Positions 13,843 to 63,550 of a stretch of DNA of 64,000 bases are shown here, piece after piece. The position numbers and the translations under genes were made by a program. The first letter of the stretch is position 1. Each line of letters opens with the position of its first letter. The DNA comes from an uncultured Planctomycetia bacterium (lineage in GTDB: Bacteria > Omnitrophota > Gorgyraeia > 2-02-FULL-51-18). Location of the stretch: positions 287,678 through 351,677 of the forward strand of contig CAZXLF010000002.1 in NCBI GenBank assembly GCA_964642015.1, read 5' to 3'. The notes under the pieces are model-generated. The model was not told the origin of the DNA. It worked only from the letters and a program-made list of their open reading frames with translations, and searched no databases.

Positions 13843-13904
13843 AAAGCGTTTTGCTTGACAAACCAAAGCATCAAGCATAAACTTACACGCGACAACTGAA
13901 TATA

Positions 13905-14150: not shown

Positions 14151-14233
14151 CTTGCGAAAAACATACGTTTCTTTTCGAGGCCGAAAGAATCGTCTATTTT
14201 TTTCTTAAGGGGCCATGAAATCCAGGACTTGCA

Positions 14234-14277: not shown

Positions 14278-14289
14278 AAAGGAACCCCT

Positions 14290-16464: not shown

Positions 16465-16514
16465 AGCAATTCGTTTGCAGTCTGATAGGCGCTTGTCTAT
16501 AATAAAGGCAGATT

Positions 16515-44100: not shown

Positions 44101-45230
44101 CGTATGGACTTTCTTTATGGTTAGGGGATGCTTCGGTCCAAGCTGCCCAGCAGACAGCTAGCCCTAATACAACAATACAGTCGATACAAGATTCTACTCG
44201 ATTAGTTTATGCGTTAGCCAATGGCATAGCGAATCCTAATAGTGACGAAACAAAAGCCCCAGACTATATACAAAATCTGGAGCAAAATCTTAAAAACCAG
44301 GGTAATGGTCAGATATCAGATTCAGATTTGCTACCTATTCCTCTTTATCAACATTTATTTCAGTTTACACATATTAATCAGAGCATAGATGCAATTAAAT
44401 GGATTATGGAATCGCAGGACCCGACAGTCCATGGAACGCTTGTGAATCAAGCGTTTGATAATCTACACAACTTCTTTTGGAAGAACGGCCTAGACCCTTA
44501 TTATATGCAACGGCCAATTGTGGGTATGGGATATTCAGGCGGATTTATGCCGCTCGTGGAAGCAATAGCAGCGACAGGGGGTATTTATAATTTCAAATCT
44601 CTAGTCGCCTTAGGTGCAGCCACCATTAGTTTGAGTCAAGACTTGGCAGACGCTGTCGTCAAGACCATTCAATATATTGAACAGGTCCAGGTAAGCGATA
44701 TTGCAAAAAACTTTGGTTTAATATTCGGTTCCGCAAGCAACATCATTCAGCAATTTATTAACGATGTGCAAAATAATTTAATTGACCCAGCGTTTACTTT
44801 GCTGGAGAATCAACTTGAAAGTATCACTCGGCAGAGCGACCCTAATAACGTTGAAAATTTACCAGATCTTTCCAATACGAATGTCCAACAGATAGTGAAC
44901 GTTTGGGGTACAAAAGATATCCTAGCTCAGACAGGTATTGGGGGACAAAAAAGCGCACTATGCGGACTATCAGGACAAAAATTAATTAATGTCGAAATTG
45001 TTGGCGCGACGCATTTTGACTATATGTTGCGCGGTGCAAATGATCCAAATCTACCAGACACTTGGAACTATAATGTAAGCAATTTTGTGACGGCGTTAAT
45101 TCGGAACAGTGATAATTCTAGTGATTTAAACGGATTCTTAGCTCAACAACAGAGTATAAATGTGACTTTTTTTGATAGCACACGCCAAGTATGGGTTGTT
45201 AAACTATCTGGCTGGGAGAGTCATCAATGA
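35169..45230 (+). CDS. giant secreted multidomain protein (3353 aa). Domains in order: signal peptide, YD/Rhs-like beta repeats, two tandem LamG/ConA-like domains, Gln-rich coiled coil, DUF4214-like motif, C39-like peptidase-like domain, long Gly/Ala/Ser-rich hydrophobic segment, C-terminal GxSxG alpha/beta-hydrolase-like region
   Basis: A single uninterrupted 10,062-nt ORF. Signal peptide MMKIKTRLIEKLCLKSVAVSLILSFSFSQLVWA. Recurrent YxYDxxGN-type repeats (NYTYAFDASNNEI, NYTYDTDAAGNVI, QYSYDADGNPS). Duplicated ~160-aa modules FDG(T/S)SY(L/I)(S/A)VP..DWD(F/L)GTGDFT(V/I)D...WYH(F/V)AL(V/L)R(T/S)G(A/S)...DEFRISKG(I/L)ARWT(S/G)NFTP, LamG-like. YDYYRRLLGRDPATMEYNSWIGKV (DUF4214-like). HFVVITAV...YIDPGKG (C39 His motif). 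PIVGMGYSGGFMP...WGTKD...GATHFDYM (Ser-Asp-His order). Confidence 0.8.
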   Translation: MMKIKTRLIEKLCLKSVAVSLILSFSFSQLVWAVDVRQMILDAESSFDQDTRRSGNLTPTNLTTAQTQAQTTVDQQQALQDLQNTNFSLTTKNGDVLQYVGNVLNKVQRPDGTLLNNIQVDANGNITNANLKLSDGSIQIFQNGQVIGYGTPDGNTVVYSAGQIQQVISKTGIVTNYSYIKDSLGNVIETDLDNTSYTTKYDANNKLKEVYDKVAGSRTTYTNGVIQKTVKSDGSQILYNSAVQPNGDIIVTPPNSNSSTYTDTQGNIFTFISGNVSTIKLKDGSILDSIVWDASNAVQSANLTAADGTKYVYQNKQLTRSTDPTGVVTNYTYTSTNIVVASAGSTWVYDPNKNPISYTDLSGNTTTYLTSGAFKGLKDRDILSTGQTFVYEYSQNSSGVISVQKREVHLQTYNVTTYSGTALLASNNPYLLFDARFENDNSFDPKISASATGTGKSLAVNLVAGSTGSSFTFNGVVTALNVSVAKGTTYNVEIRWETGRIGIYVYPKGTTRPSTPQGIVTDRSWDPTFKFSGQNAYVGYTYDSATWPWSQRGAFSVVTTSNAQSYAYLPGTPAEKITLNLNGSYQAISLTTKQYLSGIYRTITFGWNASNSIWNTKVSDWNSSTNVTTIVSTGTVAQTLTSGTDYVFDLRIEGAYLNGYVYLKGQARPSTPTLSVSALSASTDYEAIVWGSASTKTELYKNLTAPTYSAAAFQAKPVTALIDTVKNLTITKPAAPSSNPTDYSSITYSSDSKIKQIVKTDNSKYIFQNGLLTQVLDPSGNPTNFNFTQSIFSNITGSEIVQNNLDSKYDGSGNLSQIKINDITIHYLPGSTQIDYIEKTDGTQLHNLVFDASGNIIGADITAPTGEIRSYQNGQLIDLTQTDNSQIFYANAKPLKIVTPDKLTYNFDYTTPNIVQAVLDPSIVPSDALTPVKMQYDTNFNLTKVIRQNNQILNYLNNSLTEIDAPSAAPQIFAYQKDANGNILSYTVTQGNIVTTYDPNNNPVSAVVNPTSDNPHTLAAAYQYGKIRQIKKDGVVTFNYTYAFDASNNEITQVDDLEENTFRTYQSGNLVTSLDRSTSLLSTYVYVGGQVSQVQVSRLGRNLHIYNYSYSGGMTVVTDDEGTIRTYDANKQLLYLEKNGQKFQYIYTTSTKTNPITIQTVLPVTTLSQVSQSTGSNSWQQWQVNSSEGSLGIASWGWVTYNATLSQASDLKIEFDSSNFSGNVPSGYQFNLDIAVDGVSKTQYWTPVVVAGWTANSLTLTGLSSGTHAVKITWLNDYYVANQYDANFKFRNLKMTQINTTTTTTSDPITQENLIEQKLSDGSVAHYSNGAISSITRPDGSVISDLTLDSNGQVTKGTVTLSNGIKKIFNGTSILEEIDPDGTHFYFSNNEISKVVDTLGKTFNYTYDTDAAGNVIDAWLDSGSGALLKYDPNGNLLGFKPNNLSPYINGQVSFSDSSSAQYAITRSATARLDAGLPVFGSGSAYFDGTSYLSVPHTGDWDFGTGDFTVDFQARFRDTTSTQALFSIGDYASNGLTLYYTNGNLNIHINSAAVSKSIAWTPVQNQWYHFALVRTGAAVKLFVNGTQAGTDLTNSSNISGSATGVYIGALYSGGTGNYLNGNIDEFRISKGIARWTSNFTPSTQAYTADSNAKLLLHFDGTEDKYFYKFNVQKDASGNLTGYSFDGAGGKMSYDAQGNFISTTLSSSDPGLTYFADSSLTKYTSMPFGNVHLDPTQSKLGSSSVLFDGSSYIAVPNSDDWDLGTGDFTIDSFVKFKSTAGTQWLAQIGNYSSHGVGLYFVSNTIYAHVTSLTYTLSAAWTPSVNTWYHVALLRSGSALNIYINGVQLPGTSNSTNVTGVTEGVGVGGSSIMNSFNGWMDEFRISKGLARWTGNFTPPTQPDVADSYTKLLMHFEDQVSADLSGISQSMSVVKSSTITLPYKLVLTNFLPDVTAWYGDAQTALLDNQTVIANEYSSDGTLQTQTKADGTVTLFDNNKPSEVLSAAGAILIQYSYDADGNPSRVYLKNARDTLPEEVLKAKQSIEQQRASSLQALAAQKNLAYQSIQTQVQAQRQALQQNLTDLQNQYNQVANTPASGKSAKNARGNVLNQIGTQMDLVRSALVTSYQQEADAYAALDAQVKASSDKIEADSQSAFTALATQEANLKQQILQQEVSPIVYDYYRRLLGRDPATMEYNSWIGKVDYSSGNTFVEVKTTDGSLLTAALKSSINSSQELIDRQTYVQNIKNAVTSSINSYLAMTQANQQAFAASLGLSTNDVINLTSSDAQKILTWLNSRSLHFGQSAFLSLESLLDQKGITYDRQDLAKKCILVDVLSGVITPLDDGDLVISVFALNKVASLYGTGLTAANVSYDDLLSLYVSQPTARTIAHINGDHFVVITAVTKDNVTYIDPGKGVDKQNESVTVSKMDFMKTFKGNVTLDNSKAQAIANISSKTLSVEQTKKIRGAFLPLLIAAIFSAISSIGSAVFAVANGIGTIIAGVGTIVSGALNGIGQALSILGQNLSYIGQAVFNGIKFAASTIYNLGSQIFASFAGQTLFPSLTQVSFGSQLFQTAVNIGVNFATQKGLDALGINPQIASLASAFVSGGTVGSFNSGFNAANFIQNGIKTLALVSSQTLLQRVGLDANLSSTLSLIVSPLVNGIQSGNIGGSLVKIIPDLTKNLSLYGVDKLGTSLGLDAGISSLAGVSLVNGLNAAFGGGTNVGQSVIQSIQSGLTQGIVQYGLNFVGNSNPIFGSLLSSDMAKNIELAIGRDGLFQTVFNVLQNTVLNAVNVVGGTVQSIFTGITDFGSLIQQKGLPGALQYYLNSVFSRNTQETILAEGGIQSIFNNTAKTATTLPDGTAGQELKISDSASLLFDNAGNLKGKKENGVIELGTFGLDSTGKFGLTAGQVTAVLAPDLNLSAQVNGGQLQTASVKGSDGTSVVDINPENTNQPIYIEGPQTQTSNASQSFDFWGAVLKLVPYGLSLWLGDASVQAAQQTASPNTTIQSIQDSTRLVYALANGIANPNSDETKAPDYIQNLEQNLKNQGNGQISDSDLLPIPLYQHLFQFTHINQSIDAIKWIMESQDPTVHGTLVNQAFDNLHNFFWKNGLDPYYMQRPIVGMGYSGGFMPLVEAIAATGGIYNFKSLVALGAATISLSQDLADAVVKTIQYIEQVQVSDIAKNFGLIFGSASNIIQQFINDVQNNLIDPAFTLLENQLESITRQSDPNNVENLPDLSNTNVQQIVNVWGTKDILAQTGIGGQKSALCGLSGQKLINVEIVGATHFDYMLRGANDPNLPDTWNYNVSNFVTALIRNSDNSSDLNGFLAQQQSINVTFFDSTRQVWVVKLSGWESHQ

Positions 45231-46003
45231 AAAAACCGATAGTATTAACAGCCCTTTCTTTAATGACAACCTTTATCTTTAGTCATCATCTTTGTGCTGA
45301 TAATAAGAATCAGAATGGTAAACCGATCTATACCGTTGTTGGCGGACAAGGTTTAACACCTTTTCCGAATAATGAAAATACGAGGAGAATTATTAAAAGA
45401 ACTGACTTAATTCGAGAAGGCAATAAATTGGCCCATTCAGCTTTATATGATCAGGCTATAATAAAATTCCAAGAAGCAATGGATCCTTCTTTGTTTAATG
45501 ATCCAAGAGATGAGGCAGAAGGGCGTTATGGAATAATGAAGGCACGTATACGTCAGAGCAGATTTAAAGATGCCCTTAATGAGAATCAATGGTTTATCCA
45601 AAAATTTGGTCTTAATGAAAGCAATAAAGAAACGCGCCAGGAAATATTGGCTCTAATTGATTTTCAGACGACAGGCACAGCCAAATTTATTTATAACCAT
45701 GTTGAGAGTTTAAAGAATAAATATTCCGATCAACTTCCGCCTCGAAATTTTGTTGGCAACGGGCCTATAGTTTCGTCGGAAATTATTCATCTTTACGATT
45801 ACATTAACGATTCAGATAAGGCAATCGCGTTTCTAAATGAGTTTTTGACTTATCTAAAAAAACGCAGCAATGCTAGCAATTCCGACAAATCAGAAATTGC
45901 CGAATACGAAGCTGCCAAGCAAGCCTTCAAAGAGGATAAGCAGACTGGCCTAAAAGGCCATCTTCAAAAAGTTATAGCAACTTCAGAGTATATTGGGTGG
46001 TGA
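45227..46003 (+). CDS. hypothetical secreted protein translationally coupled to the giant gene (candidate immunity/accessory protein)
   Basis: Its ATG overlaps the giant-gene TGA (ATGA). N-terminal signal peptide MKKPIVLTALSLMTTFIFSHHLCA. 258 aa, helical-looking, no enzymatic motifs. Confidence 0.55.
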   Translation: MKKPIVLTALSLMTTFIFSHHLCADNKNQNGKPIYTVVGGQGLTPFPNNENTRRIIKRTDLIREGNKLAHSALYDQAIIKFQEAMDPSLFNDPRDEAEGRYGIMKARIRQSRFKDALNENQWFIQKFGLNESNKETRQEILALIDFQTTGTAKFIYNHVESLKNKYSDQLPPRNFVGNGPIVSSEIIHLYDYINDSDKAIAFLNEFLTYLKKRSNASNSDKSEIAEYEAAKQAFKEDKQTGLKGHLQKVIATSEYIGW

Positions 46004-46642: not shown

Positions 46643-48028
46643 ATGATTATGCCCAAGCGTCTGGCGATCTTATTTTTCTTATTAATTTCCTCAGCCAATG
46701 TTTATGCCGACTCATCTGCACCCACCGCTTTGGACGCTTACGTCCGCACACCCGACGAACATTTCAATTATTCCTTGCAGAAGACCGTGCGTGGAAATGG
46801 CTACACGACCTATGTGATAAATCTGACGTCCCAGCAATGGTTGACCAAAGAACAGGTCGATCGTCCGATCTGGAGACATTGGCTTACGATCATCGAACCG
46901 GACAAAGTACGCAGTAATAAAGCACTGCTCCTTATCTACAGCGGTATTTACGGCGCCTTGGAAAAAGGAATGATGGAGAAAATAGCGCAGGATACCGGTT
47001 CGGTCGTGGCATGTGTCGAGCCGCTTCCGGAGATGCCGCTTACTTTTACCGACAAAAATGGAAAGAGCGGCCAATTGGCTGAAGATACGCTTATCGCCGA
47101 CAGTTGGGCACGATATTTGAGGACCGGTGACACAAAGCGCCTGGTGCGATTACCGATCGTAAAAAGCGTTGTCAGCGCAATGGACGCGGTGAGCCGGTTT
47201 TGCGCCAATGACGCCGATCATAAGATAACCGTCGATCAATTTGTGCTTGCGGGCCAATCCAAGCGCGGATGGGCCGTGTGGCTTGCGGCATCGGTGGATA
47301 AGAGGGTGGTCGCGGTTATTCCCATGGTCATCGATATATTGAATGTCGTACCCTCATTGAAGCATCAGTACGAATCTTACGGACACTGGGAAGAAGCGAT
47401 GGGAGACTATGAGAGCGCGGGAGTTTTAGGTCAAATAAACGCGAAGCAATTCGCGGAATTAATAAAGATCGAAGACCCTTATTCCTATAAAGAGCGTTTG
47501 ACAATGCCGAAATATATCATTAATTCAGCTGACGATGAATTTTTCCCTCCGGATTCTTCGCGATTTTACTTTGATGACCTTTTGGGTGAAAAATATTTGA
47601 GGTATGTGCCGAATAGCAGCCACCACTTGTATGGAACAGATGTGATGCGGTGTGTTGAGTCGTTTTATTGGTCGATTCTTGAAGGGAAGGTGAGACCGCG
47701 GTTTTCGTGGAAGATCCAAGCCGATGGATCCATACGACTTCTAGTGATAGATAAACCTTTGAAGGTGAAGCTCTGGCAGGCCACCAACCCTGAAGGGCGC
47801 GATTTCCGGCTTCACGTCGTCGGAAACGCTTGGACGAGCAAAGAGATCTCTGAAACGGGACCGGGCGTTTATATCGGCAGTGTGCCTGCACCCGCGAAAG
47901 GTTGGACAGCATTTTTTTTGGAGCTGACCTATAATAATGGAGATGGTTCGACTCCGCTTAAATTCACCACTTCTGTGAGCGTGGTGCCGGATAGAATGCC
48001 GTTTGAGTATCGCGAGAATTCACAATAA
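46643..48028 (+). CDS. secreted alpha/beta-hydrolase-like protein resembling the PhoPQ-activated pathogenicity-related (PqaA-type) family
   Basis: Signal peptide MIMPKRLAILFFLLISSANVYA. N-terminal ALDAYVRTPDEHFNYSL...YVINLTSQQWLT...WRHWLTIIEP resembles my recollection of that family's conserved N-region. GQSKRGW is a nucleophile-elbow-like motif. Assignment from memory only. Confidence 0.4.
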   Translation: MIMPKRLAILFFLLISSANVYADSSAPTALDAYVRTPDEHFNYSLQKTVRGNGYTTYVINLTSQQWLTKEQVDRPIWRHWLTIIEPDKVRSNKALLLIYSGIYGALEKGMMEKIAQDTGSVVACVEPLPEMPLTFTDKNGKSGQLAEDTLIADSWARYLRTGDTKRLVRLPIVKSVVSAMDAVSRFCANDADHKITVDQFVLAGQSKRGWAVWLAASVDKRVVAVIPMVIDILNVVPSLKHQYESYGHWEEAMGDYESAGVLGQINAKQFAELIKIEDPYSYKERLTMPKYIINSADDEFFPPDSSRFYFDDLLGEKYLRYVPNSSHHLYGTDVMRCVESFYWSILEGKVRPRFSWKIQADGSIRLLVIDKPLKVKLWQATNPEGRDFRLHVVGNAWTSKEISETGPGVYIGSVPAPAKGWTAFFLELTYNNGDGSTPLKFTTSVSVVPDRMPFEYRENSQ

Positions 48029-48279: not shown

Positions 48280-48489
48280 TTGAAAGACGCGGAAGGCGTC
48301 TTTACGGTCCGAGAACTCGCGAAGTACCTGCGGATGAAGCCGCTGACGATCTACAAGCATGCTTCATCGGGCAAACTGCCCGGTTTTAAGGTCGGATCGC
48401 ATTGGCGCTTCAAGAAACAGACGATTGATAGCTGGATCGAGTCGCAAGAGCAATCTAATATCAATCATAAAACTTTAATAAATGCATAA
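48280..48489 (+). CDS. excisionase-family (MerR-like) helix-turn-helix DNA-binding protein; TTG start
   Basis: FTVRELAKYLRMKPLTIYKHASSGKLPGFKVGSHWRFKKQTIDSWI is the characteristic HTH_17/excisionase-family motif. AAGGAGG RBS 8 nt upstream of the TTG. Confidence 0.65.
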   Translation: MKDAEGVFTVRELAKYLRMKPLTIYKHASSGKLPGFKVGSHWRFKKQTIDSWIESQEQSNINHKTLINA

Positions 48490-48520
48490 CCCAAGCTGAA
48501 AAGCTTGGGTTTTTCATTTT
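48489..48520 (+). terminator. rho-independent terminator/attenuator after the HTH gene
   Basis: ACCCAAGC-TGAAAA-GCTTGGGT perfect 8-bp stem followed by TTTTCATTTT. Confidence 0.6.
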
Positions 48521-48566
48521 ACATGCTTTGTTTGTGTTCATAATGAAGCGGGTCGGATAATGCCAT

Positions 48567-49316
48567 ATGTTAGAAGGTTTAATAGGTAGGACGGCGATAG
48601 TTACGGGCGGGAGCCGTGGCATAGGCAAAGCTATCGTCTTGGATTTAGCCCGAAACAAAGTAAATGTGGCATTTAATTATGTTGCCAGCAAAGACGCTGC
48701 CGATGATGTTGTCGCTGAGGTTGAGAAATTGGGAGCAAAGACTCTTGCTGTTAAGGCGGACGTGAAAAACCCTGATCAAGCCAAATTATTTGTGGATGAA
48801 GCAAAAAAGAAATTCGGAAAGATAGATTTTTTAGTTAATAACGCGGGAATTTTAAAGGATAAAACCTTGATGTTTATGTCTGACGCGGATTGGAAGGATG
48901 TGATTGAAACAAACCTATATGGATCCTTTGTGTTAACGCGTCTTATGATCATGAGCTTTCTCAAGCAAAATAGCGGAGGCATTGTAAATATTTCTTCGAC
49001 TGCCGGTTTGATTGGAAATGCCGGCCAGGTGAATTACAGCGCTAGCAAAGCCGGGCTTATTGGTTTTACGAAGGCGCTTGCAAAAGAAGTGGCTTCTTAT
49101 GGGGTGAGAGTAAATGCGGTGGCGCCAGGATTTATTGAGACAGATATGGTTAAAACTATTCCCGAAAATAAGATGCAAGAAGCTGTAAAAACAATTCCCA
49201 TGCAGCGTCTTGGAAAGCCGGACGAAGTTGCTAAAGTTGTTACGTTTTTACTTTCCGAAGAGTCTGCGTACATCACGGGCCAGGTACTGCCTATTGATGG
49301 AGGGCTGGCCATTTGA
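48567..49316 (+). CDS. fabG: 3-oxoacyl-[acyl-carrier-protein] reductase (SDR family)
   Basis: TGGSRGIGKAI (NAD(P) binding), NNAG, catalytic S...YSASKAG, PGFIETDM. 249 aa. Confidence 0.85.
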   Translation: MLEGLIGRTAIVTGGSRGIGKAIVLDLARNKVNVAFNYVASKDAADDVVAEVEKLGAKTLAVKADVKNPDQAKLFVDEAKKKFGKIDFLVNNAGILKDKTLMFMSDADWKDVIETNLYGSFVLTRLMIMSFLKQNSGGIVNISSTAGLIGNAGQVNYSASKAGLIGFTKALAKEVASYGVRVNAVAPGFIETDMVKTIPENKMQEAVKTIPMQRLGKPDEVAKVVTFLLSEESAYITGQVLPIDGGLAI

Positions 49317-50551
49317 AGACCGACGATCAGAGGATAGTCATAACTGGAATAGGCGTTGTTTCACCGATCGGGATCGGAAAAGATGCTTTTTGGCAAGGCC
49401 TAAAAGAGGGCAGATCAGGAATAAAGCCGGTCACCCTTTTTGATACGTCAACAACACGGTCGAAGCTGGCCGGAGAAATAACCGATTTTAAACCGGAAGA
49501 AATTCTCGGCCCTAAAGGGCTAAGAAATTTGGACCGCACTACTAAACTGGCTTTATGCGCGGCTCAATTAGCATTGGACGACGCGAATTTTAAAATAACT
49601 GAAGAAAATTCAAATGATGTTGGTGTGGTATTAGGCTCGACGATGGGGAGCGTGTGGAGCATTAGTGAATATGATAAACAAACGTTAAAAGAGGGCCCCA
49701 GATCTGTTAATCCGGCCTTGTTTGCGAATACTGTTATCAATTCACCGGCGAGTCAGATATCGATTCGGTTTGGAATCCAAGGATTCAATTCAACTATTTC
49801 GACAGGATTTTCATCCGCATTTGATGCGCTGAAATACGCGTCAGATTTCATTAAATGGGGAAAAGCAAGCGCTGTATTGGTTGGAAGCGCAGAGGAGCTT
49901 TGCGAACAATTCTTCAAGGGTTTTTACAAATTAGGCATTCTTTCTAAGTCTCAAGAAAACAGTGAAGAAATGTTACGTCCTTTCGATAGGAGACGTAATG
50001 GCATGATTTTGGGGGAAGGTGCCGCAGTGTTTCTCCTAGAATCTTTACAACATGCCAGGCAAAGAAATGCGCCTATTTATGCGGAAATAGGATCTATTGC
50101 ATCTACCTTTAATAGACGATCCATGAATAGATATAACTTAAAGGCAACTGGTGAGATCGACAGTATGAAGAAAACATTATCTTTAGCAGAGTTAGATGCT
50201 AAGCATATTGATTGTATCGTGGCTTCGGCCAATTCTACCGTAAAAGGAGATTTAACCGAGAGTATAGCCATAACCCAAGTTTTTGATCAAGACAAACCGT
50301 CGGTCACAGCCTGTAAGTCGATGTTTGGTGAGACCTTTAGCGCGGCTGGCGCCATGAATCTTGCGGCGGGAATATTTATTCTAAAAAATCAATTTATTCC
50401 CCCAACGCTTAATGTAGAGCAAAAAGATAATGAATGTGGCGTAGAGTGTGTCAAAAATACCGGAGTATCCAAAAAAGTTGATCATATTTTGATCAATTCA
50501 TTCGGAGCGTCGGGACAAAATTCAAGCCTAGCTTTGGTAAGGAGTAGCTGA
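49313..50551 (+). CDS. beta-ketoacyl synthase-like protein lacking the catalytic Cys-His-His triad (chain-length-factor/KS-beta-like)
   Basis: Thiolase-fold KAS homolog, 412 aa. The active-site Cys position reads ISTGFSSAF rather than TAC(S/A)S. The His motifs read ASANSTVKGD and KSMFGETFSAAG, with no His in either. Confidence 0.75.
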   Translation: MKTDDQRIVITGIGVVSPIGIGKDAFWQGLKEGRSGIKPVTLFDTSTTRSKLAGEITDFKPEEILGPKGLRNLDRTTKLALCAAQLALDDANFKITEENSNDVGVVLGSTMGSVWSISEYDKQTLKEGPRSVNPALFANTVINSPASQISIRFGIQGFNSTISTGFSSAFDALKYASDFIKWGKASAVLVGSAEELCEQFFKGFYKLGILSKSQENSEEMLRPFDRRRNGMILGEGAAVFLLESLQHARQRNAPIYAEIGSIASTFNRRSMNRYNLKATGEIDSMKKTLSLAELDAKHIDCIVASANSTVKGDLTESIAITQVFDQDKPSVTACKSMFGETFSAAGAMNLAAGIFILKNQFIPPTLNVEQKDNECGVECVKNTGVSKKVDHILINSFGASGQNSSLALVRSS

Positions 50552-51759
50552 TGGAGCGTGTGGTTATTACAGGATTGGGTGTTATTACATCCATTGGCAT
50601 TGGTAAAGATGCTTTTTGGTCCAATCTGGTTCGAGGTAAGTCAGGAATAAATCCCGTTTCTCTAATTGATACCACTGATCATAAGAATAAAAACGGAGGA
50701 GAAATTAGAAATTTTAATCCTGATGATTTTATAGATTCCAAGAAACGAGAAATGTATGGTCGAGGGTCTCAGCTTGCCATTGCTGCCGCTAAACTTGCTC
50801 TAAAGGAAGCTAATATGAATTTTAAAAAAATAAATTCTGAAAATTCAGCCGTTATTATTGGCACTACTATGGCGAATATACGAGAGTTGGAAGAAGCAAA
50901 TAAGGTCTGGCTTACAAGCGGTGAAGATAAAGTAAATGCTGCCCTTATTACTAAATATCCAGGCAGCTCCCTTGCTTTTAACGTGGCTTACGAGTTAGGT
51001 TTAAAATCTCTTTGTTATTGTATCCCTACCGCTTGTGCGGCCGGCAATTATTCTATAGGTTATGGGTTTGATCTCATTCGGCACGGCGAGATTGATTTTG
51101 CATTGGTTGGCGGCGCAGATCCTTTTTCCAGAATAAGTTTTACAGGATTCGGAAATCTTTTTGCGATGGCGCCTGAAAAGTGTCAGCCTTTCGATAAAAA
51201 TAGAAAAGGTATGATGGTTGGCGAAGGCGGCGGAATGCTTGTTATTGAAAGTTTGAAACATGCTCAATTGCGAAATGCGCCTATTTATGCGGAAATATTA
51301 GGATATGGCTTAAGTTGCGACGCCAAACATATGACGCTTCCAAGTGTTGAAGGTTTGGGCAGTGTGATGAGGAAAGCTGTACAAGAGACTGGCATCAAAC
51401 AAGAAGATATTGACTATATAAGTGCCCATGGCACAGGTACAAAGACCAATGATTCCACGGAGGCGCAGGCGATCAATAGGGTTTTTCCCAAAGAGAAGAA
51501 AAAGATACCCGTGAGCTCTATAAAATCCATGCTTGGTCACACGATGGGCGCTGCGAGCGCTATCGAAGCTATTACTTGTGTGTTAGCGATCAAAAACTCT
51601 ATTATTCCACCGACTATTAATTTTGAAGAACCAGACAGTGAATGCGATATCGATTGTGTTCCGAATAGAGCTAGAAAACAGAACGTGAGAATAGCTCTCA
51701 ACAATTCTTTTGCTTTTGGCGGCAATAATGCATGCTTGGTGCTCAGCCGATTTAATTGA
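50551..51759 (+). CDS. beta-ketoacyl-[ACP] synthase (FabF/KS-alpha-like, catalytically intact)
   Basis: IPTACAAGNYSIGYG (Cys), ISAHGTGTKTND (His), KSMLGHTMGAASAIEAI (His), C-terminal NSFAFGGNNACLVL. Start overlaps the preceding KS-like stop. Confidence 0.85.
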   Translation: MERVVITGLGVITSIGIGKDAFWSNLVRGKSGINPVSLIDTTDHKNKNGGEIRNFNPDDFIDSKKREMYGRGSQLAIAAAKLALKEANMNFKKINSENSAVIIGTTMANIRELEEANKVWLTSGEDKVNAALITKYPGSSLAFNVAYELGLKSLCYCIPTACAAGNYSIGYGFDLIRHGEIDFALVGGADPFSRISFTGFGNLFAMAPEKCQPFDKNRKGMMVGEGGGMLVIESLKHAQLRNAPIYAEILGYGLSCDAKHMTLPSVEGLGSVMRKAVQETGIKQEDIDYISAHGTGTKTNDSTEAQAINRVFPKEKKKIPVSSIKSMLGHTMGAASAIEAITCVLAIKNSIIPPTINFEEPDSECDIDCVPNRARKQNVRIALNNSFAFGGNNACLVLSRFN

Positions 51760-51886
51760 AAGAAATGAATTTATGATAAAAGACCTTAACAAATGAAAAA
51801 TACAAAAGTCGTTTTTATTGCTCATTCGTTAAAAAATTTTATAAGCGTCAAAAATAGTGTCCAAACTAATGAGGAGACAGTTCAAT

Positions 51887-52144
51887 ATGCCGAAAAGCGC
51901 TAATGCAGCCCCAATAGAAAGCGATATAAGAAATCTTATCGCAAAAATTATCGAAGTAGAACCGGAGAAAATAGGTTCCGAAACGGGTTTTGTCGAAGAG
52001 CTCGGCGCAGATTCAATGATGGCGCTTGAGATCATGGCTTCTCTCGAAAAACAATTCAACATTACGATTCCCGAAGAAGATTTGCCGAAAATTACAAATT
52101 TAAGGCAAACCATTTATCTCGTTAAGTCGCTTATGAAAAAATGA
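51887..52144 (+). CDS. acyl carrier protein
   Basis: 85 aa with the 4'-phosphopantetheine attachment motif EELGADSMMALE. GGAGA RBS before the ATG at 51887, which is an internal Met of the 51857 ORF. Confidence 0.8.
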   Translation: MPKSANAAPIESDIRNLIAKIIEVEPEKIGSETGFVEELGADSMMALEIMASLEKQFNITIPEEDLPKITNLRQTIYLVKSLMKK

Positions 52145-52159
52145 TCATTGGAATAGAAG

Positions 52160-53626
52160 ATGTCAAATAAATATGATGTTGCAATTATTGGAGCGGGCAT
52201 TTCTGGACTGATAGCAGGAAATTACTTGGCACAGTCTGGCTTAAAAGTATTCATAGCGGAACAACATTACGCTGTTGGCGGATGTTGCTCATATTTTAAG
52301 CGAAATGGCTACACATTTGAATGTGGCGCCCATTCTCTTGGGAGCTGTCGAAATCCTGATGGATATCTATATAAAATTTTTAATGAACTTGGTATATATG
52401 ATGTTTTGGACATAAAGCGAGCGGAATGCTCCGACACATTAATATCAAATAAATACACGATTAATTTTTTAGATAACGCCTACCAAATGGCAAATAGTTT
52501 GGCTTATGAATTTGAACAATACAAAGGCCAGATTCACAGTTTTTTTGAGGAAGTGGAGGGATTTGGCGCAAAATCATTTCTTCGGTATTATGCGCGTTAT
52601 AAAAACATGACATTTGATATGTTTCTTTCTAAATATTTTGATAATGTCGAAATTAGAGAAATTTTAAGTATTTTCTTAGGAAATTTAGGTGTTGCTTCAA
52701 ACCAAATCAGTACCATAACAGCGCTTGCGTTATATAGAGAATTCGTGATGGATGGCGGATATTATGTTGAGGGCGGTATGAAAAAATTAGGTGATGTTCT
52801 AAAATGGAATTTTCAAAAAAATGGCGGCGTGGTTTCTTTAAAGGATAAAACAATCAAAATCATTTTAAAAAATGGGTATGCCTCAGGACTTGATACTGAA
52901 AGAAGCGGTATCATTGAATCAAAATATGTTATTTCGACAGCCGGCATCAAGCAAACATTCTTGGAGCTTATTAACGAAGAATTGATGCCGCTCGACTTTA
53001 TTTGCAAAGTTAAAAATTCAAAGCCGTCGGTATCCGCGCTGATACTTTATTTGGGTTTAAAAGGACGCAGCATTAAAGATGAGAAGTGGGGAAGGACAGT
53101 CTGGTACATACCAAATCTCAATCCAAACGAAGTGTATAGGAAAGCATTTGATGGTCAATGTGATGAAAATATCGAGGCGATGCTCATGGGGTTTCCTTCC
53201 AAGTATGATGAATCGTTAGTCCCACCGAATTGTGAAAGTTTAATGTGTATATTAAGTGCACCATATAAAAGTAACGATTTTTGGTCTACAAACAAAGCAA
53301 GATATAGAGAGGCCATAATCAATAGAATATCAACGCTCATCCCCAATATTAAAGATAGGATTGAGGTGTGCGAATTAGCAACACCTCCAACTATTGTTAA
53401 GTTCACGCTGAATGATGCAGGCGCAATTTATGGATTAGCATCAACTTCGGATCAGATAGATATTGACTATATGCCATTTAAAACACCTATTAAAAATCTA
53501 TTTTTATCGAGTCATTGGACAACCCAGGGTTATGGGCAAGCCGGGGTACCTGTCGTTGCACTAGCAGCCAAACAGGTGGCGTTTGCTATTCAAAAGAAAG
53601 AAAATCAGATCAAAGTAGTGATTTAA
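52160..53626 (+). CDS. FAD-dependent oxidoreductase of the phytoene desaturase (CrtI/CrtD-like) family
   Basis: N-terminal dinucleotide-binding fold KYDVAIIGAGISGLIAGNYLAQSGLKVFIAEQHYAVGGCCSYF...GAHSL. Length 488 aa, typical for the family. Confidence 0.75.
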   Translation: MSNKYDVAIIGAGISGLIAGNYLAQSGLKVFIAEQHYAVGGCCSYFKRNGYTFECGAHSLGSCRNPDGYLYKIFNELGIYDVLDIKRAECSDTLISNKYTINFLDNAYQMANSLAYEFEQYKGQIHSFFEEVEGFGAKSFLRYYARYKNMTFDMFLSKYFDNVEIREILSIFLGNLGVASNQISTITALALYREFVMDGGYYVEGGMKKLGDVLKWNFQKNGGVVSLKDKTIKIILKNGYASGLDTERSGIIESKYVISTAGIKQTFLELINEELMPLDFICKVKNSKPSVSALILYLGLKGRSIKDEKWGRTVWYIPNLNPNEVYRKAFDGQCDENIEAMLMGFPSKYDESLVPPNCESLMCILSAPYKSNDFWSTNKARYREAIINRISTLIPNIKDRIEVCELATPPTIVKFTLNDAGAIYGLASTSDQIDIDYMPFKTPIKNLFLSSHWTTQGYGQAGVPVVALAAKQVAFAIQKKENQIKVVI

Positions 53627-53766
53627 TTAGATTATCATCCATATTAATAATAAACATGGCGTCAATCTGGCGGTTTCTGATTGAGGGCAGAGGTTTGATG
53701 ACCATTACAAAAAATTCAGAAGTTATTTGATTAACAAATAATGGAAAACTAAAAGAAAGGTATCCT

Positions 53767-54843
53767 ATGACTACTAAACTTTCGACCGCACATTCAGAAA
53801 AAGATATAGCAATATACACATCAGCAAGGGGAAACTTGACGAAGCAGAAAATAGTTAATTTTTGTGATTTTTTAAGGGATCATTACCCTTCGGCAAAGAA
53901 ACGCAAGGGACATGACATTGAAAACTATAAATTTTTTTCAAGAGAATTAGACACACTTCTTTTTGAGTGCGAAAAAGCCATTTCCGAAACAAACAATAAG
54001 GTTCTACAACGAGAACATAAAGAATTTTTTAGAGCCGCTTTAAATTCATGGCTTACTAAGAATGACTTTGTGAGGCGATGCATGGAAAAACCGAGAGGTT
54101 ATCCTGGGGACTATTTAATGATGGAACACGGTTATCAGGATGAGGTTGATGGAAATAAATTGAACGCCAATTTTTTTGATAGATATTTCTTTGACAAATA
54201 TCAATCAATTATCTTTCGAAAGGAGAAGCTGAAACAAATATTAGTGACATTAATTAAAGATTCAAATAAATTATCAAACAAAGGGATGCAGCCAGTCGTC
54301 AAAATTATGACACTTGGTGGTGGGCCTGCGAGGGAATGGTTCGAACTCGATAAAGAGATGCGAAATCAGAAAATCAAAGCCGTTCATTTAACGTATCTCG
54401 ATCAAGATGAAGAAGCCATGGACTTTGCTAAGAAACGATTAAATTCAAACCGATTGATTAAAAGACGATGCTTTGTGCGAACAAGCCTGATTGAATTTTC
54501 AAAGGCTGCCCCTTTAACGCTCAATGTAGATGACTCGTTTGATGTTATCTACGGCTTGGGTATTGCTGATTATTTTCATGATCAATTCCTTTCGGCTATC
54601 ATTGCAAAAGCATGGTTGCTCCTAAAAAAAGGCGGTAAATTTATTCTAACTCATAAAGACAGTAAATCTTTTCCAATGGAACCGGCTGATTGGTTGTGTG
54701 ATTGGAGTTTTGTGCACAGATCGAAAGAACAATTTGAAGCATTAATTAAATCAGCTTTAGGCGCACCGAGCTCTAAGTTTAATTTAGAAATAAGCTGGGA
54801 GTCATCTGGACAGATTCTTTTTGGAATAGTCAGCAAGAATTAA
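53767..54843 (+). CDS. putative class I SAM-dependent methyltransferase with an N-terminal extension
   Basis: Motif I VKIMTLGGGPA, motif II-like FDVIYGLGIADYF, motif III-like LLKKGGKFILT in the C-terminal 200 aa. The N-terminal 150 aa are unassigned. Confidence 0.5.
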   Translation: MTTKLSTAHSEKDIAIYTSARGNLTKQKIVNFCDFLRDHYPSAKKRKGHDIENYKFFSRELDTLLFECEKAISETNNKVLQREHKEFFRAALNSWLTKNDFVRRCMEKPRGYPGDYLMMEHGYQDEVDGNKLNANFFDRYFFDKYQSIIFRKEKLKQILVTLIKDSNKLSNKGMQPVVKIMTLGGGPAREWFELDKEMRNQKIKAVHLTYLDQDEEAMDFAKKRLNSNRLIKRRCFVRTSLIEFSKAAPLTLNVDDSFDVIYGLGIADYFHDQFLSAIIAKAWLLLKKGGKFILTHKDSKSFPMEPADWLCDWSFVHRSKEQFEALIKSALGAPSSKFNLEISWESSGQILFGIVSKN

Positions 54844-54859
54844 TGCACAGAGCAAAGAG

Positions 54860-56998
54860 ATGACAATATTTATTTATTCATTACCTCAGCTATTAGGCTC
54901 TTTCATTGCCGCTATCCTTGGTTTGTTTGTGCTATCCAGAAATTGGAAGCGTCCTCTCAATCGCACATTTTCAAGTTTCGGGTTTCTTGCATCGCTATGG
55001 CTCGGGTCCGCTTCGATAGCTTATTCACTTGGATCTGAGCAAAAGATGATAATATTTAAGTTGATGCAAGTTAGCTACTCTGCGGTTATATGCATGGTCA
55101 TCCCTTATCTGAGACTAACTACTCTTATTACGCAGTCTAAGAGCCTCCAGCGGTGGGCAAATCTCTCAACTTTCATTGCCATCTTTTTTGTAGCCACAGT
55201 ATGGTTAACAAATTGGTTTATCAAAGACCTATATTATTTTCACTTTGGTTTGTATCCCAATGTTGGCTGGATTCATCCATTTTTTCTAGCATGGCTCTTC
55301 GTGTCAATGACACTTATTCATCTGATTTTGTTCCAGGGATCCAGGGACGAGAAACGCGATAGCAGAGATAGAAACCAAGCTAAATATATATGGTTGGCTT
55401 TTATTGCTGTTACGCCTGTGATAGTAGATTTTATCCCTAATTATGGAATCGACACATATCCAGCTGGTTACCTATTCGTTCTAGTGTTTGGGGCAGTAAG
55501 TGCTTACGCGATTGTTCGCCATCAATTGATGGATATTGAAGTAGTTATAAAACGAACAGCCGTATTTGCCGGCCTCTTTGCATTTGTTTATGGAACATTT
55601 ACCGTTGTGACAATATTAGGCCAGGAATTTTTCAAGAGCACTTTAGGTTGGAACCAATGGATTGCAACGATCCCAACCGTTTTAATTATTACATTTTCGT
55701 TAAGGCCGCTTGAGACCTTTCTTACAAATTTTACGGAAAGATGGCTATTCCAAAAAAAATACGATTATCGAGAGCTGCTTAGAACCTTTACGAACGAAAT
55801 CCTCACGGTTTTAGATCTAAGCAAATTAACAGAACAGACGGTCGCCGGTCTTATCAAGATCATCAAATTAGAATCCGCGGCGGTGCTTTTGCTCGATAAA
55901 GATATTAAAACGTACAAAATGGTCGCCGGGAGCGGCGTTAAAGAAAAAGAGATCGTTTTTAAGGAAAATGATTTGATCGTCTCTTACCTTAAACAGACCA
56001 ACCAACATATTTTAAAAGACAAGAGTGTCGACAAAATGGAAGGCGATGGGGAGCTTAAGGATGCCTTTAAAAAACTAAATGCCCGGATCTGTCTGCCTAT
56101 CGAGCTTCACGATAATCTGATAGGCATCCTGTCGTTAGGCATGAAGAAATCAGGCGAAGATTTCACTCAGGAAGATATCGATATCCTTAATACGCTGGTC
56201 CGCACGGAAGCGATCGCTATTTCAAACGCCCAGCTTTTCGATGAGCTGTCCAAAACGCAGGCCGAGGCGGCTCAGCGTGAAAAGATGGCGGTTATCGGGA
56301 CTCTGGCGGCAGGGATCAATCACGAGATCTGCAATCCGCTTGGGATCGTACGAGGACAGTGCGAGATGTTTCTTTTAAACCAGCGAGATGGATTTTATGA
56401 CGGAAAATCTACCGAGGACATTTTGAAAATATCCAGTGATATCATGAATAAAGTCATAAAAGAAACTGATAGGGCGACCGGCATCACAAAGAAATTATCG
56501 AGTTTTGCGAAGCCGTCAAAGCGTTCCGATCTCGAAGAAGTGCAGGTTGAAAAAGAGGTGGATGAGGTGGTCGGGCTTATTGGACATGACCTGAAGCTGA
56601 ATAACATCGACATCCAAAAAGATTTTCCCAATAATTTTCCGATCATACTGGCTGATAAGAAACAGATCCAGGAAGTGCTTTTCAATATTATCCGCAACGC
56701 TGCTCAGGCCATGGATAAAAAAAGCGGTAAGATAGTCGTGTCAGGTTTTGCGGATAACGGAAACGCCGTGGTACGCATCGCGGACAACGGCAGCGGGATC
56801 CCGAAAGACAAGATAGGGCAGATATTCAACCCATTTTATACGACCAAAGCTCCGGGTAAGGGCACAGGATTGGGTCTTTTTATCGTCAAACAGGTTGTCG
56901 AGAAGAACAGAGGGACAATATCTCTAGATAGCGAGGTAGGTGTCGGTACGACGTTTACGCTGAGATTTCCTGCAGCGGTATCACTTGTCGCGGCATAA
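54860..56998 (+). CDS. membrane sensor histidine kinase (multi-TM sensor, GAF-like linker, HisKA, HATPase_c)
   Basis: About 8 TM helices in the first 290 aa. H-box AAGINHEICNPLGIV. N/G boxes NIIRNAAQAM, DNGSGIPKD, GLGLFIVKQVV. Confidence 0.85.
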   Translation: MTIFIYSLPQLLGSFIAAILGLFVLSRNWKRPLNRTFSSFGFLASLWLGSASIAYSLGSEQKMIIFKLMQVSYSAVICMVIPYLRLTTLITQSKSLQRWANLSTFIAIFFVATVWLTNWFIKDLYYFHFGLYPNVGWIHPFFLAWLFVSMTLIHLILFQGSRDEKRDSRDRNQAKYIWLAFIAVTPVIVDFIPNYGIDTYPAGYLFVLVFGAVSAYAIVRHQLMDIEVVIKRTAVFAGLFAFVYGTFTVVTILGQEFFKSTLGWNQWIATIPTVLIITFSLRPLETFLTNFTERWLFQKKYDYRELLRTFTNEILTVLDLSKLTEQTVAGLIKIIKLESAAVLLLDKDIKTYKMVAGSGVKEKEIVFKENDLIVSYLKQTNQHILKDKSVDKMEGDGELKDAFKKLNARICLPIELHDNLIGILSLGMKKSGEDFTQEDIDILNTLVRTEAIAISNAQLFDELSKTQAEAAQREKMAVIGTLAAGINHEICNPLGIVRGQCEMFLLNQRDGFYDGKSTEDILKISSDIMNKVIKETDRATGITKKLSSFAKPSKRSDLEEVQVEKEVDEVVGLIGHDLKLNNIDIQKDFPNNFPIILADKKQIQEVLFNIIRNAAQAMDKKSGKIVVSGFADNGNAVVRIADNGSGIPKDKIGQIFNPFYTTKAPGKGTGLGLFIVKQVVEKNRGTISLDSEVGVGTTFTLRFPAAVSLVAA

Positions 56999-57006
56999 TC
57001 ATTTTT

Positions 57007-57372
57007 ATGACCAAGATACTGACCATTGATGACGAAACCGAATTCACGAGTTTGATCCAGAGCTATTTTGGAGCAAGAGGCTATGAGGTGCTGATCGCCA
57101 ACGACGGCAACGCCGGCGTGACGCTTGCGAAAGCAGAAAATCCCGACGTTTGCCTTATCGACCTTAAAATGCCGGGTCTTCATGGGGATGAAGTGCTTCG
57201 GGAGGTGCTTCTTCATAAACCTAATACCAAATGCATCATGATCACGGCCTCAGAAGGCGAGGGAAAGACTAGAGAGAAGCTGATCTCGATGGGCGCGTAT
57301 ACTTGCTTTGACAAACCGATCACGTCTTTGAGAAATTTGGAATCAAAGATCAAAGAGGCATTGGATTCATGA
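57007..57372 (+). CDS. single-domain response regulator (REC only)
   Basis: ILTIDDE, phospho-acceptor context CLIDLKMPG, conserved T/K positions. 121 aa. Confidence 0.8.
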   Translation: MTKILTIDDETEFTSLIQSYFGARGYEVLIANDGNAGVTLAKAENPDVCLIDLKMPGLHGDEVLREVLLHKPNTKCIMITASEGEGKTREKLISMGAYTCFDKPITSLRNLESKIKEALDS

Positions 57373-57758
57373 CAAAAAAACACAAACTCATGGTCGTTGA
57401 CGACGAACGCGATATCTGTAATTTTGTGAAGTCATTTTTTGAAATGAGAGGCTTTCAAGTCAGCATGGCTTTGAATGGTGATGATGCCATGTCAATCCTT
57501 ACGAAAGAAAAGCCGGATATCGTGATCCTCGATGTCATGATGCGCCGCAGCCGTGAAGGATTGGAATATCTTCCTCAGATCAAAAAGGCGCTGCCTGCCT
57601 CGAAGGTTTTGATGGTGACAGGCGTCGAGGACGCGGAGACCATTGAGACGGCAAAAAAACTCGGTGCGGACGACTATATTACGAAGCCGCTGGTATTGGA
57701 GTATCTCGAAAATACGGTGATGAAGAAGATCGGAGCATTAACTAAAGTAGGGCAATGA
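57369..57758 (+). CDS. single-domain response regulator (REC only)
   Basis: LMVVDDE...IVILDVMM...LMVTG...ADDYITKP. 129 aa. Overlaps the previous gene's stop. Confidence 0.8.
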   Translation: MTKKHKLMVVDDERDICNFVKSFFEMRGFQVSMALNGDDAMSILTKEKPDIVILDVMMRRSREGLEYLPQIKKALPASKVLMVTGVEDAETIETAKKLGADDYITKPLVLEYLENTVMKKIGALTKVGQ

Positions 57759-57815: not shown

Positions 57816-58175
57816 ATGAATAAAAGATATGATCTGGAAGATCGGACATTAAAATTTTCGAAAGAATGTATTGATTTAAGTAAGCTACTCGTTCGCGATT
57901 TGATTAACATCGAGCTTGTTAGCCAATTTATTAGAGCTGCAGGTTCAATCGGAGCAAATTATAGAGAAGCTAATGATTCGATCTCAAAGAAGGATTTTTA
58001 TTATCGAATCGGAATTTGCAGACGTGAAGCCAAGGAAACCAAATATTGGATCGATTTATTGCTTCATGCCAATCCAAAGCACTCTGAAAAAATAGAGCCT
58101 CTTTTGGATGAAGCGTTGCAATTATCTCGAATATTTGCAGCAATTTCTCATCAGAATGGAAAACCAAATGATTAA
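57816..58175 (+). CDS. four-helix-bundle protein (23S rRNA intervening-sequence protein family, PF05635-like)
   Basis: 119 aa, all-helical, with the family-typical IRAAGSIGANYREAN...SKKDFYYRIGICRREAKETKYWIDLL core. Confidence 0.7.
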   Translation: MNKRYDLEDRTLKFSKECIDLSKLLVRDLINIELVSQFIRAAGSIGANYREANDSISKKDFYYRIGICRREAKETKYWIDLLLHANPKHSEKIEPLLDEALQLSRIFAAISHQNGKPND

Positions 58176-63530: not shown

Positions 63531-63550
63531 GTGGGCCTCCTTATTTAAAT

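Follow-up and report, generated by a model that had tools for sequence, protein, structure and literature searches.

Two described systems frame the locus reported here. The first is the putative ladderane Cluster I of anammox bacteria (kuste3603-3608), which encodes an acyl carrier protein (amxACP; ACP) with an unusual long 3-10 helix, amxFabZ, amxFabF2, amxFabFmut, a phytoene-dehydrogenase homologue and a B12-radical S-adenosylmethionine (SAM) enzyme. The Brocadia fulgida amxFabF2/amxFabFmut heterodimer of this cluster (PDB: 9s5h and 9s5i; 2026 preprint) is a ketosynthase (KS)/chain-length-factor-like pair that decarboxylates malonyl-ACP jointly, neither protein doing so by itself, and that prefers C6/C8 probes to C16, with Phe135 and Val139 of amxFabFmut shaping the tunnel near C8 (2026 preprint). 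The second is the phcBSRQ operon of Ralstonia, in which PhcB makes methyl 3-hydroxymyristate or methyl 3-hydroxypalmitate, the kinase PhcS senses the ester, and the receiver proteins PhcR and PhcQ lack DNA-binding domains; the operon holds no fatty-acid synthesis genes, and the system has been described as genus-specific (PMC8578825). Gene clusters that antiSMASH labels 'ladderane' have also been reported to be expressed in Omnitrophota and in seven or more further phyla, where their function is unexplained (bioRxiv 10.1101/2022.12.20.521206). We analysed a 64,000-nucleotide stretch of contig CAZXLF010000002.1 (the window, to which all coordinates refer unless a related locus is named) that probably carries an instance of these non-anammox clusters. 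In it, orthologues of the Cluster I KS pair stand upstream of a remote homologue of PhcB, which is itself directly followed by a sensor histidine kinase.

We view the region as one module in two parts. The biosynthetic part (48567-53626) encodes a FabG-type ketoreductase (KR), a catalytically dead KS partner resembling a chain-length factor (CLF), an active KS, a dedicated ACP and a CrtI-family flavoenzyme (PDH). The signalling part (53767-57758) encodes a methyltransferase (MT), a histidine kinase (HK) and two response regulators (RRs), also takes in an HD-GYP protein and convergent seven-transmembrane (7TM) kinases, and resembles the Ralstonia operon. We tentatively propose, with confidence a little short of even, that the module is a dedicated pathway to a medium-chain modified fatty-acid methyl ester that would be sensed by the adjacent kinase. 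Gene identities were taken from Pfam and NCBIfam profile matches, and all functional assignments follow from homology and gene neighbourhood. A preliminary description of 48280-54843 had listed a small helix-turn-helix (HTH) regulator gene followed by the five biosynthetic genes and an MT-like gene, all of which are present there on the + strand (the strand of every window feature below unless stated otherwise). The tight spacing that it described, including a gap of about 140 nt before the MT, is borne out by an overlap of 4 nt between KR and CLF and of 1 nt between CLF and KS, with intergenic gaps of 127 nt (KS-ACP), 15 nt (ACP-PDH) and 140 nt (PDH-MT). Its impression of AT-richness also holds, since GC content runs from 0.43 in the KR gene down to 0.37 in the PDH gene and 0.36 in the MT gene, against 0.447 for the window and 0.465 for its first 35 kb. 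It was right that the genes form a specialised cassette, clustered and of a non-housekeeping kind, but their kinship to the anammox 'ladderane' Cluster I had gone unrecognised.

That kinship is carried by the KS pair. Among all PDB sequences the active KS (402 aa; 50551-51759) matches 9s5h_B best (493 bits), followed by Iga11 (351 bits) and Bacillus subtilis FabF (340 bits), and the dead KS homologue (412 aa; 49313-50551) matches 9s5h_C best (342 bits), its second-best match reaching about 233 bits. The two proteins are orthologues of amxFabF2 and amxFabFmut, respectively. The active KS is 56% identical to the crystallised B. fulgida amxFabF2 and keeps the Cys-His-His triad, the Phe gate and the metal-site residues. 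Alignment of its partner to it gives Phe, Ser and Glu for Cys, His and His, in agreement with the dead subunit predicted earlier, and this subunit retains the Brocadia residues Phe135/Thr138/Val139, which line the tunnel near C8. A neighbour-joining tree of 48 sequences (Kimura-corrected p-distances, 200 bootstrap replicates) places the active KS in a clade with amxFabF2 and the KSs of related cassettes (100% bootstrap) and the dead KS in a clade with the Brocadiales amxFabFmut (99.5% bootstrap), Iga11 being the next relative and Bacillus and Synechocystis FabF the outgroup; the deep branches inside the clades are unresolved, so that the anammox pair may be either nested in the kinase-linked cassettes or sister to them. 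On the phylogeny that the preliminary description had named as its test, both KSs therefore lie outside ordinary FabF.

These results bear directly on the plainest alternative, namely that the genes are housekeeping fatty-acid synthase paralogues (FabG, FabF, FabF and AcpP) that happen to have unrelated neighbours. The KR does pass the FabG equivalog cut-off, and the active KS is above the cut-off of the FabF subfamily model NF005589. Against the fabF equivalog TIGR03150, however, the two KSs score 434 and 352 bits (cut-off 493.75), one of them is without all three catalytic residues, and both fall outside canonical FabF with high bootstrap. In addition, the gene set and its order, kinase included, are kept across phyla, and no fabD, fabH, fabZ or fabI gene is adjacent. 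The phylogeny and the dead active site in our view refute this explanation, to which we give almost no credence.

Compared with anammox Cluster I, the window has in common the orthologous active/dead KS pair (51-56% and 49% identity), the change of the second His to Glu in both dead subunits, the tunnel residues, a dedicated ACP and a CrtI-family flavoenzyme directly after the KS/ACP genes. Unlike Cluster I, it has a KR and is without a FabZ-type dehydratase and a B12-radical SAM enzyme, and the Cys of the dead KS is replaced by Phe, whereas Val or Thr stands at this position in the anammox proteins. The PhcB-like MT and a two-component system follow in the window, whereas the Cluster I of a Brocadiales metagenome-assembled genome (MAG; locus L059) runs ACP-FabZ-KS-KS-PDH-B12-radical SAM and then into unrelated genes. 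The B12-radical SAM enzyme of that MAG found no match in the window when used as a tblastn query, and the sole radical SAM protein of the window is the product of a lipoyl-synthase-like gene (10346-11347). The host differs too. RpoA of the window is 84-92% identical to proteins named Candidatus Omnitrophica or Omnitrophota, and the host is therefore an Omnitrophota bacterium and no ladderane-producing anammox planctomycete. Because two defining genes of Cluster I (those for the B12-radical SAM enzyme and amxFabZ) are absent and the host is the wrong one, the window does not belong to the ladderane cluster family. A pathway to ladderanes or their precursors, as the antiSMASH label would imply, is accordingly very improbable in spite of the homology of the KS/CLF pair and the PDH to their Cluster I counterparts. 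A non-anammox locus nearer to Cluster I in gene content than the window is found in Candidatus Omnitrophica bacterium CG1_02_40_15 (L020, ~800-16800), which has two B12-radical-SAM-like genes, a KR, a CrtI-family gene, a dehydratase and a KS/dead-KS pair, and which bears on the question of which genes are ladderane-specific.

The KR (249 aa; 48567-49316) is a 3-oxoacyl-ACP reductase by its match to TIGR01830 (305 bits, cut-off 297.75) and is 50-60% identical to the KRs of related cassettes. The ACP (85 aa; PF00550) has a DSM serine motif, its start is better set at the ATG at 51887 (gene 51887-52144), which has GAGGAG upstream, and its best PDB match is a tie between amxACP (7auf) and an ordinary ACP, both at 48.3 bits. 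The PDH (488 aa; 52160-53626; PF01593, PF13450) is a CrtI/amine-oxidase-family FAD oxidoreductase that stays under every NCBIfam equivalog cut-off and is 30% identical to the Brocadiales Cluster I PDH, which occupies the same position in its cluster. Every one of its roughly 30 clear relatives comes from MAGs or metagenomes, and a scan of genome contigs (one genome per species) with the PDH alignment found no cultured organism above 34% identity. The 'CrtI-like desaturase' of the preliminary description thus stands as to family, but desaturation was a guess, the anammox homologues kuste3336 and kuste3607 being unable to desaturate phytoene and having no known activity (PMC4790861). Pfam and tblastn with queries from related loci uphold its statement that the cassette encodes no dehydratase, acyltransferase or cyclase, and found no enoyl reductase, thioesterase or radical SAM gene there either. 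Across the whole window, the dehydratases of L059 and L061 gave no tblastn match and Pfam found no FabA/FabZ domain.

Highly reducing type II polyketide synthases (PKSs) follow the logic seen here, in which a KS/CLF pair is combined with a KR but no enoyl reductase. The locus could on this account make a polyene or reduced polyketide (aryl-polyene, flexirubin or ishigamide-like) that is secreted or stays bound to the cell and serves in defence or as a pigment, with the two-component system as no more than the regulator of the pathway. Iga11 is indeed the second-nearest solved KS and the sister group in the tree, and the KR scores 267 bits on the flexirubin FlxB model, although under its cut-off of 340. 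We nevertheless judge such a product improbable. With no dehydratase in the window, its gene set could not by itself yield a polyene, and the CLF keeps the tunnel residues that limit the Brocadia enzyme near C8. No ApeI/ApeP pair, enzyme for the activation or loading of an aryl or amino starter, LolA/MMPL export gene, acyl- or glycosyltransferase was found in 44-64 kb of the window, and there is no amide synthase. The KS is far nearer the amx clade than Iga11 of the ishigamide type II PKS (493 vs 351 bits), and the window is without the dehydratase, amide-forming enzyme and tailoring enzymes of that pathway (Iga10-Iga13, Iga16). Nor are there traits of the aromatic type II PKSs: the CLF has Phe at the Cys position and no active-site Gln, and Pfam finds no cyclase or aromatase.

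Related loci were collected from the contigs of PDH relatives, a profile scan with one genome per species and tblastn panels, and most of them are metagenomic fragments without reliable taxonomy. Besides the window, fifteen non-anammox loci have its architecture (L004-L012, L033, L035, L061, L063, L065 and L066); those that carry a label come from Omnitrophota, Planctomycetia, Nitrospirales and a Rhodocyclaceae-labelled MAG, and the others from unbinned metagenomes. The preliminary description had staked its proposal on synteny elsewhere, and the same gene order does recur in many genomes and metagenomes of several phyla. As far as the contigs reach, the common architecture consists of a dead KS, KR and ACP, often headed by an HTH_17 gene, usually a FabA/ApeI-like dehydratase, and an active KS. 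One or two CrtI-family genes come after this core (none in L065), together with varying tailoring genes that encode a second PDH, a nitroreductase, an NAD-dependent reductase or an MT. A 7TM-GAF-type kinase follows the last biosynthetic gene in the window and in all 15 related loci; it is full length (26-48% identical) in 13 loci, is partial or truncated where the contig stops in L011, L035 and L065, and is usually followed by single-domain RRs and sometimes by an HD-GYP protein. The tailoring genes change from one locus to another; of all the neighbours of the cassette, the kinase is the most constant. It is absent at the more distant KS/CLF and PDH loci (L015, L019, L020 and L029) and at the anammox loci.

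The MT gene (358 aa; 53767-54843) joins the two parts of the module. The preliminary description had called its product SAM-MT-like, which is supported by an AlphaFold2 model of a class I SAM-dependent methyltransferase with a helical cap (pLDDT 85, pTM 0.86). All Pfam matches are under cut-off, neither NCBIfam nor Pfam has a model for the family, and a PDB fold search with the model returned the generic class I fold, the best match being an uncharacterised Bordetella protein (3ocj). The homologue list contains a protein named by JGI 'extracellular factor 3-hydroxypalmitic acid methyl ester biosynthesis protein' (that is, PhcB), to which the MT is 25% identical over 266 aa (BLASTP, E 3e-22). 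This JGI-metagenome protein lies in an operon of MT, membrane kinase and receiver-kinase; a 35%-identical PhcB-type relative on a Paraburkholderia graminis plasmid, which the window MT matches over 271 aa (BLASTP, 24% identity, E 2e-18), lies in an operon of MT, kinase, RR and RR. An alignment of 32 MT sequences shows an invariant P-x-G-Y-x-G-D core, contained in a KPxGYPGDY motif, and the SAM-binding glycine. From its remote homology to PhcB we propose that the MT is the signal-forming enzyme, a carboxyl O-methyltransferase.

A metagenome scan with the MT alignment returned at least 526 loci, 80 of which were used for neighbourhood counts. A same-strand kinase lies directly downstream of the MT homologue in 34 of the 37 loci with at least 2 kb of downstream sequence, and of the 37 for which 3 kb or more of upstream sequence exists, just 5 have KS/ACP/PDH genes there. 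One locus (L118) repeats the chassis of the window: its MT overlaps a HisKA_7TM-GAF kinase (44% identical), which is followed by RR, RR, HD-GYP and convergent kinase/RR/cupin genes, and upstream of the MT there are housekeeping genes alone. In the window the MT gene is 16 nt from the kinase gene and 140 nt from the PDH gene, with a promoter-like site in the 140-nt gap. The MT is thus part of a conserved locus, as had been supposed, but the cluster does not end at 54843, and the MT is spaced into an MT-HK-RR-RR block. Other members of the family are arranged differently. L083 (7227-14500) carries three tandem units of RR and PhcB-like MT, the second and third each followed by a kinase, which suggests paralogous expansion of MT-kinase signalling pairs. 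Some homologues (P0148, P0157, P0163 and P0164) are fused to PilZ (PF07238) and/or receiver (PF00072) domains, a hint that synthase activity may come under the control of c-di-GMP or a phosphorelay.

The candidate receptor is the kinase encoded directly downstream (712 aa; 54860-56998; Pfam GAF, HATPase_c), a 7TM-GAF-HisKA-HATPase sensor with seven hydrophobic segments within residues 7-253, whose full-length homologues (26-48% identity) carry the HisKA_7TM domain (PF16927). The gene for RR1 (121 aa; 57007-57372) starts 8 nt after it, and that for RR2 (129 aa; 57369-57758) overlaps RR1 by 4 nt. Both are single-domain regulators (PF00072), RR1 being 48-50% identical to proteins of L010, L061 and L066 and RR2 48-54% identical to proteins of L010 and L061. 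The likely output of the module is a GAF-HD-GYP protein (58247-59473; PF13487, PF01966, PF01590), by its domains probably a c-di-GMP phosphodiesterase. In L033, L061 and L118 the same kinase has a homologue of this protein (41-49%) downstream; in L008 the match (45%) covers part of the protein, and L066 has a REC-HD-GYP relative. Convergent to the operon, on the - strand, are genes for two paralogous HisKA_7TM kinases identified with Pfam, one of 541 aa with a HisKA_7TM-HisKA-HATPase arrangement (59886-61511) and one of 540 aa (61508-63130). Their operon is headed by a single-domain RR (63162-63557), assigned from its open reading frame and translation and 40% identical to RR2 by tblastn. A convergent HisKA_7TM kinase is also present in L012, L033, L063 and L118. 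There is no sign that sensor and tailoring enzymes co-vary, since the window kinase is 41, 41 and 26% identical to the kinases of MT-containing cassettes and 45-48% identical to those of cassettes without an MT. Among the signalling genes lie small 23S_rRNA_IVP (four-helix bundle) and GIY-YIG genes (57816-58175 and 59529-59828, and 63608-63988 on the - strand), and in related cassettes (L005, 6343-6645; L063, 4380-4625) GIY-YIG genes also separate the KR gene from the ACP gene; these look like small selfish or mobile genes inserted repeatedly at such loci. A defence-system reading of the region was rejected, its MADS1 match of 66 bits being under the cut-off of 80.

The position of the kinase also suits a different account, which is the main rival to a released signal. 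The cassette may make an unusual acyl chain (unsaturated, hydroxylated or methylated) for the membrane or outer-membrane lipids of the cell itself, with the multi-pass kinase reading the state of the membrane in the manner of DesK/DesR and tuning expression, and with the MT modifying the lipid, which is not released. The closest characterised relatives, those of anammox Cluster I, are thought to feed membrane lipids, seven membrane helices are typical of membrane-state sensors, and neither a thioesterase nor an exporter is encoded. That six loci open the cassette with a small HTH regulator would likewise fit regulated envelope-lipid synthesis. The RRs, however, have no output domain that binds DNA, and what is conserved as output is an HD-GYP protein. 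The chassis of kinase and MT also occurs without lipid-synthesis genes (L118), and MT homologues are paired with a kinase at nearly all of the loci counted above. The MT is moreover kin to a signal synthase and not to cyclopropane synthases or phospholipid methyltransferases, and no acyltransferase connects the dedicated ACP to glycerolipid or lipid A synthesis. On balance we think an envelope lipid somewhat unlikely, though a serious contender.

In the methyl-ester pathway that we favour, the active KS and its dead partner would form a heterodimer, as their crystallised Brocadia orthologues do, which would decarboxylate malonyl-ACP to prime synthesis and build up an acyl chain of short to medium length on the dedicated ACP. 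The KR would reduce the beta-keto group. Dehydration and enoyl reduction, if any, would be provided by housekeeping FabZ and FabI; otherwise the chain would remain 3-hydroxylated and would therefore be suited to a PhcB-type enzyme. The CrtI-family flavoenzyme may add, shift or remove a double bond, acting as a desaturase, isomerase or saturase, after which the PhcB-like MT would turn the acyl product into a diffusible methyl ester that exits the cell. The 7TM-GAF kinase would detect this ester, and the single-domain RRs would pass the signal to the HD-GYP (c-di-GMP) output and possibly to the HTH_17 regulator.

Several observations weigh against this scheme. The MT is just 24-25% identical to PhcB-type proteins and is without their N-terminal extension of ~100-140 aa, and the window kinase has a HisKA_7TM plus GAF sensor, as opposed to the MASE8-type sensor found next to the PhcB-like protein P0158. 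Methyl esterification cannot serve for release in general, since an MT is missing from most HK-linked cassettes. A kinase beside biosynthetic genes would fit equally well with regulation of those genes on another cue. No thioesterase, exporter or uptake gene is present, and the window has no dehydratase though most of its relatives have one, which clouds the chemistry of chain extension. Finally, expression of the anammox genes kuste3603-3608 in E. coli gave no new fatty acids (PMC4790861).

The HTH gene at the head of the cassette (48280-48489) has a TTG start with an AAGGAGG ribosome-binding site ahead of it and encodes an HTH_17 (excisionase/MerR-like) DNA-binding protein of 69 aa (PF12728, 2.2e-15; TIGR01764, 52 bits), probably a local regulator. 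Homologues with 41-67% identity head the cassette in L005, L010, L012, L061 and L066. A prophage or mobile-element origin for this 'excisionase' was rejected, as the gene heads the cassette in all six loci, the window included; the annotated flanks of these loci, which have differing neighbours, also count against it. The terminator or attenuator that the preliminary description placed between this gene and fabG was found directly after the HTH stop codon (48488-48511). It is an intrinsic-terminator-like hairpin with a 10-bp stem containing 5 GC pairs, followed by the T-run TTTTTCATTTT (dG -19.1 kcal/mol, z -5.5). An Rfam search upstream of fabG found no riboswitch, leader or other element. 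With a strong terminator at this point, co-transcription of all the genes as one unit is unlikely.

The surroundings of the module are largely of another kind. The first 35 kb of the window carry housekeeping genes (SecY, Adk, RpoA, S4, L17, GapA, Pgk, Tpi and others), and the cassette and its upstream neighbour were assembled independently in three sequencing runs (SRR12313477, SRR12313479 and SRR12313480), which argues against a chimeric contig. That neighbour, a PhoPQ_related protein (46643-48028; PF10142, 379 bits) encoded 251 nt upstream of the HTH gene, was weighed as an esterase partner and kept outside the unit because it lies next to the cassette solely in contigs of the same organism. 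An open reading frame of 258 aa (45227-46003) was likewise dismissed as a cassette gene; it has no family match, overlaps the stop codon of the giant gene before it and was assigned to that gene. The giant gene (35169-45230), 3 kb upstream of the cassette, encodes a 3353-aa RHS/Laminin_G_3/Peptidase_C39 protein. A homologous giant gene (4297 aa, same domain set; 26% identity over 525 aa) lies just downstream of a related cassette in L061 (19139-21434) and L062 (11052-13347), and a SpvB/TcdB/RHS giant gene comes after the cassette of L005 (16933-21473); such proximity could be coincidence, or the giant gene could be a regulatory target of the signalling module. Elsewhere in the window, a cobalamin riboswitch (13932-14163; RF00174, 74 bits) lies directly 5' of a TonB-dependent receptor gene (14215-16464), which is probably a BtuB-type B12 uptake gene, and two paralogues of the isocitrate/isopropylmalate dehydrogenase family are present within the 64 kb (7940-9037 and 32076-33170).

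The recurrence of the kinase invites a wider proposal, which we put forward with more reserve than the pathway itself as a possibility to be kept in view. The 'ladderane-like' KS/CLF-ACP-PDH clusters of uncultivated phyla (Omnitrophota, Planctomycetota, Nitrospirota and others) may provide the biosynthesis for a large family of systems, so far unrecognised, in which cells signal to one another with lipids. Its constant core would be the 7TM-GAF kinase, single-domain RRs and HD-GYP output, and variety in the signal would come from an exchange of the enzymes for tailoring or release (PhcB-like MT, second flavoenzyme, nitroreductase or NAD-dependent reductase). If this is true, signalling by fatty-acid methyl esters of the Phc type is not Ralstonia-specific, and anammox Cluster I would be a derived offshoot with a B12-radical SAM enzyme in place of the signalling genes. 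If it is confirmed, a quorum-sensing chemistry known from Ralstonia and relatives would reach deeply branching, largely uncultured and possibly host-associated bacteria. Cluster I has been called unique to ladderane producers, and amxFabF2/amxFabFmut the first chain-length factor in a fatty-acid pathway (2026 preprint). Orthologues of the KS pair and flavoenzyme, together with a dedicated ACP, nevertheless occur with no radical SAM enzyme beside them in Omnitrophota and several further phyla, which narrows the ladderane-specific part to the B12-radical SAM enzyme and perhaps amxFabZ, and many natural variants are thereby gained for working out the roles of the KS/CLF pair and the CrtI-like enzyme. 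The 'ladderane' clusters of non-anammox bacteria recur unexplained in metagenome mining, and their invariant link to a sensor kinase, joined in the window by one to a PhcB-like MT, points to lipid signalling.

Set against known signalling systems, the locus agrees with Ralstonia phcBSRQ in the order of MT, membrane histidine kinase and two receivers without DNA-binding domains, in having a remote PhcB homologue with the common KPxGYPGDY motif, and in the putative class of its signal, a fatty-acid methyl ester. It differs in the ~25% identity of the MT and its missing N-terminal extension, in the HisKA_7TM plus GAF sensor, and in its receivers, which are both single-domain (PhcQ-like) with no PhcR-type receiver-kinase fusion. 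A PhcA-type LysR regulator was not seen in the window, and the output appears to be the HD-GYP protein instead. The dedicated KS/CLF-ACP-PDH line would supply the acyl chain in the window, and we infer that it replaces the housekeeping fatty-acid pool because the phc operon has no fatty-acid synthesis genes. Membership of the phcBSRQ family cannot be claimed, given the 25% identity and the different sensor domain.

A second comparison is with diffusible signal factor (DSF)/Rpf signalling, in which the fatty-acid-derived signal is made by the RpfF synthase and acts through the RpfC kinase and the HD-GYP protein RpfG. Common to both would be a signal derived from a fatty acid (as proposed here), a sensor kinase in the membrane and, as output, a c-di-GMP phosphodiesterase of the HD-GYP type. 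The likeness is one of analogy alone. The window, however, is without an RpfF-type crotonase, and its HD-GYP protein has a GAF rather than a receiver domain. The reports of non-anammox antiSMASH 'ladderane' clusters give no gene-level anatomy and no link to a sensor kinase or a PhcB-like MT, and neither the constant coupling of such cassettes to a 7TM-GAF kinase nor their PhcB-like MT is described in the literature that we searched. The combination is built from component systems of already known kinds, an anammox-type KS/CLF core and a Phc-like pair of methyltransferase and kinase.

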